Of a stretch of 5,132 nt of DNA, positions 116 to 5,132 are shown piece after piece. Under the pieces are notes generated by a model that was not told the DNA's origin, did not search any database, and saw only the letters and a list, made by a program, of their open reading frames with translations. The stretch lies in IMG/VR virus record IMGVR_UViG_2636416161_000006; one strand, written 5' to 3'. Position numbers and translations under genes: made by a program. The first letter of the stretch is position 1, and each line of letters begins with the position of its first letter. The stretch is from a virus. Taxonomy: Duplodnaviria > Heunggongvirae > Uroviricota > Caudoviricetes.

Positions 116-209
116 AACGTGACTGAATTGATGAGCACAACATCTGGCTGGCATTAGAGAGTGTTTTACGAAATCTGAACACCACATCACTGGTTTCAGT
201 GGGAGATTG

Positions 210-668
210 ATGATGAAGATAATCGCAAAGGCTTTTCATCATGTATTTGGCAAAGTATCCGATTTGCCATCTGTAATACCGATGAACAACAGAAGGGAGA
301 TGCTGCTTGATGTGGTTGTGTTCCCATACATAGACCTTTCTGAACCAATGAAAGCAACTCTTTTCAGAAAGTATCTTGGCGACTTTAAACGCCGTTTTAC
401 AGGCGTTAACGGGATGGTTGATATCTGCTCCATCAGAGATATTGTTGAACTTGCAGGGATTAATTTGTGGGGAGAAGCGGCAGCAGCATACAAATGGCTT
501 GAACGCCTGCACTGTGTTTCATTCAGTGACATGAGTGCTGATATCGCTTTAATGGTTCCTCACAAAATCAATATGGTCTTTGCTGGTGGCAATTACACTT
601 ATCCATGGAACCAGGAACAAAGAGAGAACAGGAAAGCTCACGCCATGAAGAGTAATGCGACTCCATAA
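210..668 (+). CDS. Hypothetical protein, about 152 aa; possible helix-turn-helix or winged-helix DNA-binding segment (SIRDIVELAGINLWGEAAAAYKWLERL)
   Basis: ORF-track frame 207..668. GGGAGA at 201-206 is an SD-like element, so ATG at 210 (or 213) is a more plausible start than TTG at 207. Stop TAA 666-668, followed by an intrinsic terminator. The overlapping minus-strand ORFs look spurious. No family recognised. Confidence 0.7.
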   Translation: MMKIIAKAFHHVFGKVSDLPSVIPMNNRREMLLDVVVFPYIDLSEPMKATLFRKYLGDFKRRFTGVNGMVDICSIRDIVELAGINLWGEAAAAYKWLERLHCVSFSDMSADIALMVPHKINMVFAGGNYTYPWNQEQRENRKAHAMKSNATP

Positions 669-720
669 ATATAGTTTTTAGAGTCCATAAAAAAACTGTC
701 AAAACCTGACATACAGAACG

Positions 721-848: not shown

Positions 849-1022
849 ATGGCTATTTCAGTAAAGCCAGTATTGATAAGTGAGAAGCAAATGGAAGCGA
901 TAAAGAAAATTCAGGAGGAGCAGCGTAAAAAATCAGAGGTAGGAGTTGCGCCAACGATCCACGAAATTGCTCGGGGATTAATGGATAAGGCGCTGGCTTA
1001 CACTTTAACTGGACGTGGGTAA
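849..1022 (+). CDS. Small protein, 57 aa (MAISVKPVLISEKQMEAIKKIQEEQRKKSEVGVAPTIHEIARGLMDKALAYTLTGRG); possible ribbon-helix-helix DNA-binding protein
   Basis: Not in the supplied ORF track, probably below its length cut-off. Strong SD AAGGGGG (838-844) 4 nt before ATG 849. Stop TAA 1020-1022 lies 4 nt before ATG 1027 of the next ORF. Pattern of short N-terminal strand (KPVLIS), helix, turn and helix resembles CopG/Arc-type RHH proteins. Fold assignment is inference. Confidence 0.65.
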   Translation: MAISVKPVLISEKQMEAIKKIQEEQRKKSEVGVAPTIHEIARGLMDKALAYTLTGRG

Positions 1023-1026
1023 ATCA

Positions 1027-2493
1027 ATGGCTACGTGGCAACAGGGTATTAATTCTGGTGGTTTTCTGGCTGGCATCGGTACGCAAAATGAGAATGCGCC
1101 AAAGGCAAGCGACATTAACGCAACGCTTGGTCTGATCCGCGAAAACAATGAACTGGCTCGCTCAGGTGCAAATAACGTTGCTCTGACAGGTCTTCGTGGT
1201 CTGGCTGGAGTTGCTGATATTTATAAGCAGCAGCAACAGCAGGAGCGTAAAGCGGCATTCCAGAAAGGTTATGCAGATGCTTATGCGTCCGGTGACAGGG
1301 AGCAGATGCGTAATCTTATTACAGCATTCCCAGAAGAGTTTGAGGAAGTCCGTAAAGGGATGAGTTATGTCGATGATGCTCAAAGGGATGATTATGGCAA
1401 TCTGGCGCTCAAAGCACAGGTAGCCTCATCGCTTGGTCCGGGCGCATTTGGCAGGTTCATGATGGATAATGAGCAGGAGATGCGTCGTTTAGGTATCCCT
1501 CCAGAAACTATTGCTGAAATGCAGGTTAATGACCCGCAGGGCTTCCAGCATTTCGCAGGTAATCTGGCGCTGTTTTCTCTCGGTCATGAGAAGTATTTCG
1601 ATATCAAAGATCAAATGGAAGGTCTGGATATTGAGCGTGGCAAGTTGGCAGAGACAATCCGCAGCAATCAGGCTGGCGAGGCACTTCAGGCGAGAGGGCA
1701 GGATATTAGCCGAGCAAATGCGTTAACGTCAGCATATGCACCAACAGCAGCAATGCAGAATTACAATCAGTACGCTCAAATGTTAAAGGCGGATCCTGAG
1801 GGGGCTGCGGCATTTGCGGCAGCGGCGGGAATTAATACAAACGCCAAAAAATTAATGAGTGTTAGAGAAAACGATGATGGCACTGTCACAAAATACTACA
1901 CAGACGGAAGTGAAGAGCAGGGAAAACTAAACCAGCCAATATCTGGAGATGGGTTTCGTCCAATAGCTTTGCCAACAGCCCAAAAGATCATGGAAAAGTC
2001 GCCAGAAGGGGCTAAAAAAGCTGCTGGATTTGCATACAGAGTTAGGGATGCTCTTGATTCAATAGATACACTGAAAGACCAGCTTAGCCCACAGCGAGTG
2101 GCGATCATTAATAATGCTTTGGGTAATGGGACGCTGGCTAACTTAACGCTCAGCCCAACAGAGCAGCAATACGTTGTTAATGCTAATGACGCAATAATGG
2201 CAATACTCCGTCAGGAAACAGGGGCAGCTATCGTACCTGCTGAAATGTCAAAATATTATCAAATGTATTTCCCTCAGCCTGGCGACTCCACAAAAACCAT
2301 TGATACCAAGCGCCGGAAGATGGAAAACCAGTTCAATTCGCTGAAAGCTGCTTCTGGTCGAGCTTATGATGCTTTGCGGGTTATTTCAGCAGTTGACAGA
2401 GGAACTTCTTCTTCGTCGCAGACATTGCCGCAATCTGAGCAGGTATCACAGCCAGCAGCCAGCAGTAACTTTTCTTCACTATGGGGTGATTAA
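1027..2493 (+). CDS. Hypothetical protein, 488 aa from ATG 1027 (492 aa if GTG 1015 is used); Gln/Ala-rich, low-complexity, no hydrophobic segment, function unknown
   Basis: Uninterrupted ORF of about 1.47 kb. ATG 1027 follows the upstream stop by 4 nt (translational coupling), with weak SD-like GTGGGT at 1015-1020. Its stop TAA 2491-2493 overlaps the next start in TAATG. Contains a QQQQQ run and Ala-rich tracts. No Walker, HxH, nuclease or other catalytic motif recognised. Confidence 0.9.
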   Translation: MATWQQGINSGGFLAGIGTQNENAPKASDINATLGLIRENNELARSGANNVALTGLRGLAGVADIYKQQQQQERKAAFQKGYADAYASGDREQMRNLITAFPEEFEEVRKGMSYVDDAQRDDYGNLALKAQVASSLGPGAFGRFMMDNEQEMRRLGIPPETIAEMQVNDPQGFQHFAGNLALFSLGHEKYFDIKDQMEGLDIERGKLAETIRSNQAGEALQARGQDISRANALTSAYAPTAAMQNYNQYAQMLKADPEGAAAFAAAAGINTNAKKLMSVRENDDGTVTKYYTDGSEEQGKLNQPISGDGFRPIALPTAQKIMEKSPEGAKKAAGFAYRVRDALDSIDTLKDQLSPQRVAIINNALGNGTLANLTLSPTEQQYVVNANDAIMAILRQETGAAIVPAEMSKYYQMYFPQPGDSTKTIDTKRRKMENQFNSLKAASGRAYDALRVISAVDRGTSSSSQTLPQSEQVSQPAASSNFSSLWGD

Positions 2494-4598
2494 TGGCTAA
2501 AGCATGGAAAGATGTTATCGCCTCTCCACAGTATCAGGCGTTAGCACCAGAACAAAAAGCGCAGGCTCAGGAGCAATACTTCAATGAAGTCGTGGCCCCG
2601 CAAGCCGGAGAAAGTGTAGAGCAGGCTAAGCAGGATTTTTATGCTGCCTATCCACTACCATCAACGAATGAAATAGACCGATCCCAATCAGCAACTCAAA
2701 ATATTCAACATACATCATCTGATAATTCTCTTGCGTCAGGGTATGCAAAGTTAGCTACTCAGCAAAGAGAGGGGCTTGAGCGTTCAGCAGAACAGGGAGC
2801 CAGTCTTGGGGCTGCGATGCGCGATGCTATAACAGGCGAAAGCCGAATGACTCCAGAGATGGAGAGACTGCAAAATGTCGACCTTGCCCCAGAGTTAACC
2901 TCACTCAGCATGGATGCTCTAAAAGCTCGATGGTCTCAACTTTTCGGCTCTGACGCATCTCAGGAAAAGATTCTTCAGAGCATGGGAGCGAAATTAAGGC
3001 AGGATGAGAAGGGTAACACTATCGTTTCCCTGCCATCCGGTGATTATGCTCTGAACAAGCCGGGTTTATCGCCGCAAGACGTGGCATCGTTTCTGGCTAA
3101 TGCGCTGGCGTTTACACCAGCGGGCAGGGCTGGAACGGTGCTTGGTGCCATAGGAAAATCAGCAGCTACAGATTTAGCACTACAGGGAGCCACCAGCCTT
3201 GCTGGTGGAGAAGATATTGATCCGTTACAAACGGTAATTTCTGCTGGCATTGGTGGTATTGGTAAGGGGCTGGAAAATACAGCGAGTGCGGTTTCGAGGG
3301 CTGTTCGTGGTGATATGTCGCCTGAAGCAAAGGCTGCTGTCAACTTTGCATCGGAAAGAAATCTGCCGTTAATGACCAGTGACATGCTGAAAGATAAAAC
3401 CTTTATGCAGAGTCAGGCTCAGACATTAGGCGAAAGAGTTCCTTTTTTTGGAACCGGTAAGAATCGGCTGAATCAACAACAAGCACGAGAAAATTTAGTC
3501 AGAACATTTAGCGATGGTCTGGGTGGCATTTCTGATAAACAGCTTTATGAATCTGCGACTAAAGGGCAACAAAAATTCATTGAGGCAGCAGGAAAGCGAT
3601 ATAACCGCATAATTGACGCTATGGGGGATACCCCTGTCGATCTCTCAAACACGGTAAAAGCTATCGACAATCAGATTGCCGTGTTAAGCCGCCCGGGCAA
3701 ATCTCAGGATAGAGCCGCGGTAAAAGTCTTGCAGCAATTTAAAGACGATATCACCAGCGGACCAAATGACCTGCGTCTGGCGAGGGAAAACAGAACCGAT
3801 CTTCGAAAGCGATTTATGGCGTCATCTGACACTGTTGATAAAGATACGCTCCAGAAAGCCAGCGATATTATCTACAAGGCATATACGGCGGATATGAAAA
3901 AAGCCGTAGCCAAAAATCTTGGAGCAGACGAAGCCATTAATATGGCAAGGGTTGATCGCTCATGGTCTAAATTCAATGACATGATGGGAAGAACGCGCGT
4001 TCAAAAGGCAATAGCCAGCGGCAAGGCCACGCCTGAGGATGTAACAAAACTCGTTTTTAGCCAAAGCCCATCAGAACGTTCTCAGCTTTACAGGCTTCTG
4101 GATGACAATGGTAGGCAAAACGCACGAGCAGCCATAGTTCAGAATGCTGTAGATAAGGCGACTGATCCGTCTGGAAATATCAGTGTTGAGAAGTTTATTA
4201 ATGCGTTACACCGGAACAGGAAGCAATCAGCAACTTTCTTTAAAGGCGTACATGGAAAGGAACTGGACGGCGTTATTAAATACCTCAACGATACAAGACA
4301 CGCGGCAAAAGCGAACGTTCAAAACTTAAATGGTCAGCAGCTTTATGGATTGTTAGTTGGTGGTGGCATCATAAACGCAGCAGTATTAGCGGGGATGCTA
4401 AAAACGGCTGCGTTTGTTGTTCCTGCTGCTGGTGCCGTAGGCGGAGCAGCGAAGGCATACGAAAGCCCTGTTATACGAAATGCCTTGTTACGTCTGGCAA
4501 ATACGCCAAAAGGTAGCACAGCATATGACAGAGCGATCAGTACGGTCACACAATCACTGACCACAGCAGCACAAGCATCGCAAAAGGAAGCTCAATAA
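2493..4598 (+). CDS. Hypothetical protein, 701 aa; mostly hydrophilic and low-complexity with a C-proximal Gly/Ala-rich hydrophobic hairpin (about aa 617-653); possible membrane-inserting protein
   Basis: Uninterrupted ORF of about 2.1 kb. SD GGGGTGA (2483-2489), ATG 2493 overlapping the upstream stop. Hydrophobic stretch LYGLLVGGGIINAAVLAGMLKTAAFVVPAAGAVGGAA is encoded at 4341-4451. Stop TAA 4596-4598. No family recognised. Confidence 0.9.
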   Translation: MAKAWKDVIASPQYQALAPEQKAQAQEQYFNEVVAPQAGESVEQAKQDFYAAYPLPSTNEIDRSQSATQNIQHTSSDNSLASGYAKLATQQREGLERSAEQGASLGAAMRDAITGESRMTPEMERLQNVDLAPELTSLSMDALKARWSQLFGSDASQEKILQSMGAKLRQDEKGNTIVSLPSGDYALNKPGLSPQDVASFLANALAFTPAGRAGTVLGAIGKSAATDLALQGATSLAGGEDIDPLQTVISAGIGGIGKGLENTASAVSRAVRGDMSPEAKAAVNFASERNLPLMTSDMLKDKTFMQSQAQTLGERVPFFGTGKNRLNQQQARENLVRTFSDGLGGISDKQLYESATKGQQKFIEAAGKRYNRIIDAMGDTPVDLSNTVKAIDNQIAVLSRPGKSQDRAAVKVLQQFKDDITSGPNDLRLARENRTDLRKRFMASSDTVDKDTLQKASDIIYKAYTADMKKAVAKNLGADEAINMARVDRSWSKFNDMMGRTRVQKAIASGKATPEDVTKLVFSQSPSERSQLYRLLDDNGRQNARAAIVQNAVDKATDPSGNISVEKFINALHRNRKQSATFFKGVHGKELDGVIKYLNDTRHAAKANVQNLNGQQLYGLLVGGGIINAAVLAGMLKTAAFVVPAAGAVGGAAKAYESPVIRNALLRLANTPKGSTAYDRAISTVTQSLTTAAQASQKEAQ
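3190..3208. other. Back-to-back Chi octamers forming a perfect palindrome CCACCAGC-CTT-GCTGGTGG
   Basis: GCTGGTGG (E. coli Chi) on + at 3201-3208 and its reverse complement at 3190-3197, i.e. Chi on the minus strand. Additional Chi octamers at 582-589 (+) and 724-731 (-, inside the terminator stem). Confidence 0.6.
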
Positions 4599-4659: not shown

Positions 4660-5058
4660 TTAACACTTGCCTTTAACATTGCCGACAAATGAGCCTGTAA
4701 ATGAGCCTATATCAGATCGACTAATTGTTCGTGTATGGATCACTTTTCCGTCATTTGAGATTGCCCATGTGACAAGCGTCAGTTGACCATCTCGATAGCT
4801 TCTTCCCATCATGGCATTCGGAGATAGCGGGTAATAATCAATACCTCCACCTATACCATCTTTTGCCAAGATAAGATCCGCCTTCTCTTTACTTATTACC
4901 AAATGAAATGTATCTGGTATAGATGATAACTTATAGTTATACCCATCTGAACTTGAGGCTTCTTGTCCTTTCAGATCACCAATAATCCAGCATTCAGCGT
5001 TCGCTCCAAAAGAAGCAAATAATAAACCGGAGACAACCAATCGCTTCAATTGATTCAC
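4660..5058 (-). CDS. Small secreted (periplasmic) protein, 132 aa precursor with a predicted Sec signal peptide (MNQLKRLVVSGLLFASFGANA, cleavage after ANA); mature domain of about 111 aa begins ECW and ends in Cys
   Basis: ORF-track frame 4660..5121. An internal GTG (5056-5058) is preceded at 6-nt spacing by the strong SD AAAGGGAGG and gives a textbook signal peptide (N-terminal K/R, hydrophobic core, AxA site). The upstream ATG at 5121 has no SD within the window and would add 21 non-signal residues. Not a lipobox (E at -1). About 42 percent GC by hand count of several lines. Confidence 0.75.
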   Translation of the reverse strand: MNQLKRLVVSGLLFASFGANAECWIIGDLKGQEASSSDGYNYKLSSIPDTFHLVISKEKADLILAKDGIGGGIDYYPLSPNAMMGRSYRDGQLTLVTWAISNDGKVIHTRTISRSDIGSFTGSFVGNVKGKC

Positions 5059-5132
5059 ACCAACCCTCCCTTTAGCGTTGTTTAGAATGGCAATTGGATT
5101 TGCCCCTATATTTCCAGACATCTGTTATCACT

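Follow-up and report, generated by a model that had tools for sequence, protein, structure and literature searches.

An apolar Gly/Ala-rich segment near the C-terminus of a P22 gp16-family ejection protein in a satellite-like Escherichia coli island: a candidate membrane element

Introduction

The virions of phage P22 contain three ejection proteins, gp7, gp20, and gp16, all of which exit the capsid ahead of the DNA. Here we analyze a gp16-family ejection (DNA transfer or pilot) protein of 701 amino acids (aa), encoded at positions 2493..4598 (+ strand) of a 5,132-nucleotide stretch of viral DNA (Caudoviricetes; IMG/VR record IMGVR_UViG_2636416161_000006), which is referred to throughout as the window. 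Near its C-terminus, this protein carries an apolar, Gly/Ala-rich, uncharged segment encoded at 4341..4451 (+). We hold with moderate confidence that this segment, residues 617–653, enters the membrane after ejection; the role of the segment is what we infer, whereas the identity of the protein and its target membrane are well supported.

In situ, P22 gp16 corresponds to a density that spans the cytoplasmic membrane and is missing with gp16-less particles, and the density beneath gp20 is best fitted by six gp16 copies (bioRxiv 10.64898/2026.09.03.749273). The best in situ map is at ~10 Å, and its authors describe gp16 as having no strongly predicted transmembrane helix. Purified gp16 is a soluble monomer; it is packaged into procapsids and it diffuses, complementing other particles in trans. 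When ejected without gp20, gp16 leaves cells unharmed, with no effect on growth and no killing. K+ efflux depends on gp7, gp20, and gp16 together, and gp16 and gp20 function only when both derive from one phage (PMC10461980). The PP3 part of gp20 exposes hydrophobic residues toward the membrane, and in each gp7 subunit the C-terminal hairpin has been resolved in situ as a pair of helices embedded in the outer membrane. P22 mutants that escape exclusion by SieA carry the gp16 substitutions G532W and P546S along with gp20 changes at 338–350, and full escape requires both the gp16 changes and those in gp20 PP3 (T338, T341, G350 region) (PMC10461980).

Results

The 701-aa protein and its gp20 partner

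Sequence comparison places the 701-aa protein in the P22 gp16 family of ejection proteins, a membership based on PHROGs, BLAST, and precomputed Pfam assignments. The protein matched phrog_770 ('DNA transfer protein') over residues 19–700 (E=2e-161). Tblastn aligned it with P22 gene 16 at 29.7% identity over 68% of the query (E=2e-38) and with Sf6 at 32.7% identity over 100%, and the nearest sequenced phage was coliphage N7, at 67% identity. Precomputed Pfam annotation places PF26808 (Phage_P22_gp16) on the 96%-identical protein P0001 and on every listed close homolog; a gp16 model match was also sought in NCBIfam and in a local Pfam copy, where none was found. The ATG of the gene at 2493 overlaps the stop codon of the upstream gp20 gene, and P22, Sf6, and HK620 are arranged alike.

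The upstream gene (1027..2493, +) encodes a homolog of gp20, the periplasmic-tunnel ejection protein and functional partner of gp16, and matched Pfam Inj_translocase (E=1.3e-83). RefSeq annotates its start at 1027, the mechanical list of open reading frames (ORFs) has a GTG at 1015, and the product is 492 aa long. This gp20 homolog is a mosaic: residues 1–66 are nearly identical to P22 gp20, residues 1–239 align at 55%, and the C-terminal half is unrelated. Residues 1–66 are those with which gp20 enters the gp7 channel and the outer membrane, and the combination of a near-P22 N-terminus with an unrelated C-terminal half fits reliance on the gp7 of a helper phage. At the DNA level, the match to sequenced P22-like phages was limited to window positions ~1017–2655, at 86–92%.

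Over its initial ~55 residues (window 2493–2660), the 701-aa protein is ~75% identical to the N-termini of HK620-type gp16, which is otherwise very different, and closely matches Sf6 gp16 as well; AlphaFold2 (AF2) modeled this part as a confident long helix. This N-terminal portion looks like a shared module, perhaps one for gp20 binding or procapsid incorporation. Four database proteins (P0004, P0021, P0115, and P0117) also look like fusions or deletion products derived from this gp16, of the types gp20–gp16 (1019 aa), gp7–gp16 (650 aa), DUF968–gp16, and primase–gp16 (818 aa), which suggests frequent rearrangement or decay of the cassette.

An apolar Gly/Ala-rich segment close to the C-terminus

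Window positions 4341–4451 (+) are in frame with ORF 2493–4598 and translate to LYGLLVGGGIINAAVLAGMLKTAAFVVPAAGAVGGAA, residues 617–653 of 701, with 48 residues separating the end of the segment from the C-terminus. The first-pass annotation of this DNA, made from the sequence alone, had described a stretch of about 37 residues, some 50 residues from the C-terminus, as the only long hydrophobic one in either large protein, and a 19-residue Kyte-Doolittle scan bore out this description. The 19-residue mean (KD19) of the 701-aa protein peaked at 1.79, at residues 625–643. Across both large proteins it exceeded 1.0 in the 617–653 region only, with a runner-up of 0.95 in the 701-aa protein and a maximum of 0.88 in the 492-aa protein. 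Over the 37 residues the mean (KD37) was 1.55, and Gly plus Ala account for 49% of the segment, vs 22% of the entire protein. In a shuffle control, a 19-residue peak of 1.79 was attained 560 times in 5000 and is not unusual for the composition; a 37-residue stretch with a mean of 1.55 was attained 17 times in 5000 and is rare.

The same annotation had noted a Pro and charged residues suited to the turn of a helical hairpin, and these details needed correction. K637 is the sole charged residue within the segment, and P644 lies away from the turn, seven residues into the second arm. The turn is most likely at K637–T638. Arm 1, LYGLLVGGGIINAAVLAGML (4341..4400, +), comprises residues 617–636 and, at 20 residues, has marginal transmembrane propensity. 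Arm 2, TAAFVVPAAGAVGGAA (4404..4451, +), comprises the 16 residues 638–653 and is bounded by K637 and K654.

At the DNA level, positions 4341–4451 showed no tandem repeat and no Rfam match; a single imperfect 15-nt inverted repeat was present, of the kind that Ala codons produce. Expansion of a DNA repeat as the origin of the longer segment, and an overlapping RNA element as its explanation, were ruled out on these grounds. A minus-strand ORF at 4343–4564 was set aside as a by-product of GC-rich Gly/Ala codons.

The character of the segment is conserved across the family

For the family comparison, 137 diverse representatives, taken as clusters at 50% identity with members of at least 550 aa each, were aligned over their last 220 residues together with the window, P22, and Sf6 proteins. 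All aligned proteins share one architecture: a (T/N)GQ motif, then an uncharged Ala/Gly-rich stretch, then (R/K)xYES...RNxLLRLANTP. The N-terminal border is N613-G614-Q615 in the window protein (4329..4337, +), with the Gly present in 128 of the 137 and GQ in 89. The C-terminal border is the motif Y-E-S-x3-R-N-x-L-L-R-L-A-N-T-P-K-G-S, residues 656–675 (4458..4517, +); YES occurs in 116 of the 137, and Y656, E657, S658, R662, A669, T671, and P672 are invariant in 36 closer homologs.

Between these borders, the stretch has a median length of 31 residues (range 25–38), a mean Gly plus Ala content of 41%, and a mean Kyte-Doolittle value of 1.04. Charged residues average 1.1 per 31, and 131 of the 137 representatives have two or fewer. 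The frequency of the top residue is 0.36 inside the stretch vs 0.53–0.62 in the flanks (0.62 for 654–675). Character is thus conserved while sequence varies, as would be expected of a stretch with a real role and not of a generic polar linker. The window stretch is the longest of the family, at 38 residues by the alignment measure, and ranks 7th of 137 in hydrophobicity. Among closer relatives there are two variants, one of ~43 residues (the window type) and one of 35–39 residues, and complete P22-like prophages contain both. Satellite-like islands are not the only setting of the long hydrophobic variant, since the same or a similar variant is also found in P0005 and in complete Yersinia P22-like prophages (P0014).

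The small-residue pattern of the stretch was also considered. A transmembrane glycine zipper, (G/A/S)xxxGxxxG, was rejected: small-residue pairs at i,i+4 were not enriched across the 137 segments (z -0.1 to 1.1), and the window segment holds a few individual small-xxx-small pairs. Small residues (G/A/S) were enriched at i,i+3, with z of about 4–8 over these 137 related segments, whose kinship inflates the statistic.

The alignment also places the sites of SieA escape. P22 G532 is the Gly of the TGQ motif and aligns to window G614, three residues N-terminal of the segment, and P546 falls, by alignment, within the P22 counterpart of the segment (~533–563). The escape sites at and in the element are genetic evidence that it acts at or beside the cytoplasmic membrane or at a membrane-seated gp16–gp20 junction.

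These family data bear on the idea that the segment is a low-complexity flexible linker from the helical core (~275–600) to the C-terminal motif, tolerated since ejection proteins unfold through the portal. A poorly conserved sequence, a length varying from 25 to 38 residues, AF2 confidence below 50, and a 19-residue peak that more than a tenth of the shuffles reach would all suit such a linker. It would not be expected to show the strong charge depletion seen in nearly every representative, nor the consistently positive hydropathy, which is the opposite of typical disordered linkers, and the full 37-residue stretch is exceptional in the shuffles. Two independent P22 SieA-escape substitutions strike the element, and the divergent HK620-type gp16, with its unrelated-looking C-terminus and no YES motif, yet has an analogous Gly/Ala-rich apolar stretch at 598–646 (KD19 1.65). 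We therefore regard the linker explanation as distinctly unlikely.

Hydropathy scales and structure prediction

The segment was compared with two P22 proteins on further scales, using Wimley-White, Hessa, and Goldman-Engelman-Steitz (GES) values. Its best 19-mer, with the KD19 of 1.79, scored 1.50 on a TopPred-like GES measure, -1.44 on Wimley-White octanol, and +2.64 on Hessa. The corresponding values were KD19 2.60, GES 2.17, Wimley-White -16.0, and Hessa -1.3 for SieA, the integral-membrane control, and KD19 1.31, GES 1.58, Wimley-White -0.58, and Hessa +5.75 for the C-terminal hairpin of gp7. The gp16 segment is more hydrophobic than the gp7 hairpin on KD19, Wimley-White, and Hessa; GES marginally favors gp7 (1.58 vs 1.50). 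Because the gp7 hairpin is embedded, the P22 ejection system offers a demonstrated case of weakly hydrophobic Gly/Ala-rich hairpins serving as membrane elements. Judged by these scales, the segment is not a canonical transmembrane helical hairpin of two apolar helices of at least ~18 residues with favorable insertion.

AF2 was run on the full protein (36-sequence alignment, mean predicted local distance difference test [pLDDT] 60) and on residues 550–701 (mean pLDDT 49). The core at ~275–600 was confidently helical, and helices of low confidence were predicted at 614–621 and 629–639. The models do not confidently bury the segment in a globular core, which is weak evidence regarding its surroundings.

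Pore-forming colicins and type III translocators are soluble-to-membrane proteins with an apolar hairpin of ~40 residues, and colicin hydrophobic hairpins resemble the segment in length (37 residues) and in Gly/Ala/Val/Leu composition. The first-pass annotation had drawn on this likeness; in the strongest version of that idea, the segment would be an autonomous pore-forming hairpin that permeabilizes membranes on expression or on external addition. By the account of Perez 2009 given in PMC10461980, P22 gp16 aided DNA uptake into liposomes in vitro under certain conditions, as such a hairpin might. The comparisons made here do not bear the likeness out: no colicin or translocator family matched in Pfam at E<=0.1, where the only match was a sub-threshold one to Htt_bridge, and sequence and profile searches of the PDB together with Foldseek found no solved relative of the 701-aa protein, the best fold match having E=0.16. 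P22 particles lacking gp20 eject gp16 without killing, and K+ release needs all three ejection proteins. From P22 genetics, gp16 is not an autonomous pore former in vivo; the explanation is largely refuted for P22, and we find it hardly credible for the window protein.

Weighing membrane insertion against a protein interface

Membrane insertion of the segment is favored by its apolar character, which is kept throughout the family, by the SieA-escape substitutions that fall at and in it, by its likeness to the membrane-embedded gp7 hairpin, and by its lying outside the confident helical core of the AF2 models. Several observations weigh against membrane insertion of the segment. It scores far below SieA, a true inner-membrane protein. 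Arm 1 is marginal (Wimley-White octanol sum -2.69, Hessa sum +2.09, GES 1.50). Arm 2, with only 16 residues, is too short and too weakly apolar for a canonical transmembrane helix and has unfavorable values (+4.25 for the Wimley-White octanol sum, +4.49 for the Hessa sum). Neither arm is amphipathic, each being apolar throughout, and for this reason the two cannot alone line a DNA-conducting lumen. In the full-length and fragment models alike, pLDDT was below 50 at 607–657, a low confidence that is not positive evidence. Within the family, KD19 is weak in P22 (0.73) and Sf6 (0.77) and reaches at least 1.6 in just 19 of the 137, and the median stretch of 31 residues is too short for two full membrane crossings. 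According to Perez 2009 as reported in PMC10461980, P22 gp16 lacking residues 476–609 still binds membranes in vitro, so that on this account P22 gp16, at least, can bind membranes without the segment. Since residues 476–609 had been found dispensable in vitro in that account, the authors of the SieA study thought that the escape mutations probably spare membrane association (PMC10461980).

The same truncation result would be expected if the segment were a protein–protein interface or hinge that is not lipid-embedded, serving either close helix packing in the gp16 oligomer, through its small apolar residues, or docking at the periplasmic membrane face, where the gp20 PP3 'club foot' has a hydrophobic underside; membrane binding would then fall to the N-terminal Gly/Ala-rich region. 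We regard this explanation as possible but doubtful. The need for changes in both gp16 and gp20 PP3 for SieA escape, together with the same-phage pairing of the two proteins, suggests that these regions touch, and the hydrophobic residues of PP3 face the membrane. In P22 and Sf6 gp16 the most hydrophobic parts are N-terminal, Gly/Ala-rich stretches and not the C-terminal segment, the segment of most members is too short to cross twice, and the i,i+3 enrichment of small residues runs across the family (z about 7, the sequences not being independent). A specific docking surface would rarely be as poorly conserved as this segment (0.36), and the AF2 monomer shows no confident packing of the segment on anything. 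The near-absence of charge and the moderate hydrophobicity are equally expected of a lipid-exposed element. An interface role and a lipid-embedded role of the segment are not mutually exclusive.

A second Gly/Ala-rich region lies at window 3070–3310 (residues ~191–273), with low AF2 confidence and KD19 values of up to 0.95. It corresponds to the most hydrophobic regions of P22 and Sf6 gp16 and is a candidate source of the membrane binding that survives C-terminal truncation in P22.

A proposed role for the segment in ejection

If residues 617–653 do enter the membrane, the following course of events may be envisaged, in which the packaging, ejection, and conduit steps are shown for P22 and are extended to the 701-aa protein by homology. 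The protein would be made in soluble form in the producer and packaged in a P22-like capsid, which it would leave before the DNA by way of the gp7/gp20 conduit. Probably in about six copies, it would then assemble under the gp20 club foot as the cytoplasmic-membrane part of the conduit. The club foot would template the gp16 oligomer, and element 617–653 would form a helix-turn-helix wedge seated within or upon the cytoplasmic membrane, with arm 1 long enough to span the bilayer and arm 2 more likely re-entrant or interfacial. So placed, the element would help to build the membrane part of the conduit or to anchor it, and may form part of the surface on which SieA acts. Its marginal hydrophobicity could itself be functional, allowing partition into the bilayer once gp20 has concentrated gp16, without aggregation or insertion in the membrane of the producer; weak hydrophobicity fits here because ejection proteins must remain soluble in the producer and in the capsid.

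The first-pass annotation had proposed that the 701-aa protein inserts into a membrane, either the producer's or a target's. Insertion stands for the gp16 family, given the P22 in situ data, and this segment is a plausible candidate for the inserting element. Of the two membranes, the target's, namely the cytoplasmic membrane of the infected cell, is upheld, and the producer's is not, P22 gp16 being soluble there.

The locus lies in a satellite-like island

A near-identical E. coli locus (99.7% identity) lies in a ~17.3-kb element between yicC and dinD (L003:2749-20043; NZ_CP104613), flanked by 24-nt imperfect direct repeats. The island encodes a tyrosine integrase, an AlpA-like regulator with a helix-turn-helix domain, an AntA/B antirepressor, an Ash-family protein, a P4-alpha-type TOPRIM/DUF927 primase, the gp20–gp16 pair, and a PerC regulator. 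No capsid, portal, terminase, or tail genes were found in these ~17.3 kb, and the architecture is satellite-like, resembling P4 and phage-inducible chromosomal islands (PICI). All five sampled E. coli chromosomal copies are in integrase/primase islands, at two integration sites (yicC–dinD and beside the pao operon), and at none of the five does gp16 lie with the capsid and tail genes of a P22-like virion assembly cluster (portal, coat, 14, 7, 20, 16, tailspike). The gp16 allele, at coverage of at least 80%, is present in 398 of 5426 complete E. coli genomes (~7%).

Three sibling islands carry a full 14-7-20-16 cassette (L008:11270-16106, L009:11270-16106, and L011:6270-10816), consisting of gene 14 (DUF2824, E=2e-61), gp7 (PF25688, E=2e-72), gp20, and gp16; the gp16 of L011 is a truncated pseudogene. 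The window variant and L012 carry gp20 and gp16 only. An 89%-identical gp16 allele with an identical segment (P0005) lies within the full P22-like cluster of a complete P22-like phage contig (L013), and no sequenced phage exceeded ~67% identity to the window allele over its length. Within the limited literature covered, a search for satellites with ejection-protein genes found no description of one.

Some part of window 1–5132 matches 3839 of the 5426 E. coli genomes, in at most 29 places per genome, and 1384 plasmid places. As far more genomes match than carry gp16, some sub-segment of the window must be widely repeated.

Several small genes surround the gp20–gp16 pair, and PADLOC scans of these neighbors found nothing. 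A 153-aa ORF (WP_155692104) at window 207–668 (+) occupies the place where sibling islands have genes 14 and 7 and had no match in Pfam, PHROG, NCBIfam, or PADLOC. A 57-aa ORF at 849–1022 (+) lies directly upstream of gp20, overlaps the start of the GTG-1015 ORF, and has no family match; its relatives of 53–57 aa (WP_001018522 and WP_001018524) are conserved and head the ejection cassette in all sampled islands, and its product might be a small regulator. Directly downstream of gp16, a convergent gene at 4660–5121 (-), annotated as 4660–5058, has the position and orientation of sieA in P22. Its product of 132–153 aa, which is hydrophobic and signal-like near the N-terminus (KD19 1.48 at residues 29–47), matched phrog_2651, of unknown function (E=2e-22), and gave no hit in PADLOC. 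Downstream of gp16, the small minus-strand genes of other P22-like elements are different ones, and the gene at 4660–5121 could be an exclusion or moron gene.

Two repeats were also observed. A 22-nt direct repeat, AGTTTTTAGAGTCCATAAAAAA, lies at window 673–694, just past the 153-aa ORF, and its 91%-identical partner (L003:7200-7221) lies 5.5 kb upstream, inside the ash-family gene region of the island. A GC-rich repeat of ~20–23 nt, ATTTCGTGACCAGTACGCGCGCG..., occurs in three to four copies at L003:17244-17556 and 19913-19939, in the right-hand part of the island downstream of the window.

Discussion

As a recognizable feature of a known phage protein family, the hairpin is mostly ordinary. 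Its value is that it offers a concrete candidate for the membrane crossing of gp16, namely a family-wide, uncharged, Gly/Ala-rich element with SieA-escape sites, and natural alleles like that of the window have an element long and hydrophobic enough for direct testing. The genomic setting is maybe more interesting, in that an ejection-protein cassette sits in a capsid-less, satellite-like island found in ~7% of complete E. coli genomes.

Both aspects can be joined in one picture, which we consider unlikely as a whole. The TGQ–YES element would be the part of gp16 that crosses the bilayer, for example as six hairpins forming a 12-helix barrel like that of gp20, and the direct target of SieA-type proteins; the island would be a satellite that steals the capsids of a P22-like helper and equips them with its own gp20 and gp16 (in the siblings also 14 and 7). 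If this were true, the rapid sequence turnover of the element would reflect an arms race with exclusion proteins, and satellite particles with a different membrane element could enter cells protected by the exclusion system of a helper prophage.

Among described systems, the colicin hairpin is buried in a globular bundle, and AF2 predicts no such burial for the segment of the 701-aa protein. Phage T7 gp16, the inner-membrane complex of the T7 ejectosome, holds the same position in a three-gene ejection cassette. It is soluble when purified and inserts into liposomes, and a review attributes putative C-terminal transmembrane helices to all gp16-like homologs (PMC8954989). T7 gp16 differs in being double the size and in having a transglycosylase domain that is absent from the 701-aa protein, and no sequence or fold similarity was detected in searches that included T7 entries.

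The gp16 of P22 (609 aa; PF26808) and its Sf6, L, and N7 homologs are alike with the window protein over most of their length, in gene order, and in the overlap with gp20; they also share its TGQ–apolar–YES architecture near the C-terminus and are expected to have the same role in the conduit. The window protein differs from P22 gp16 in an identity of only ~30%, in a segment of 38 residues vs 29 in P22 and 28 in Sf6 (9–10 longer), and in the far greater hydrophobicity of that segment (KD19 1.79 vs 0.73 and 0.77). It also lies in a satellite-like island, unlike the phage-borne gp16 of P22.

For the segment itself, the closest parallel is the V-shaped hairpin of P22 gp7* (~residues 190–229), with 40 residues vs 37, a Gly plus Ala fraction of 0.53 vs 0.49, and one charge at the turn and marginal hydrophobicity in each. 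The gp7* hairpin differs in belonging to the outer membrane and in forming the very C-terminal end of its protein; after the gp16 segment there is still a conserved tail of 48 residues. As a functional analogy, with no homology claimed, the gp7* hairpin provides the best model of how the gp16 segment may work.

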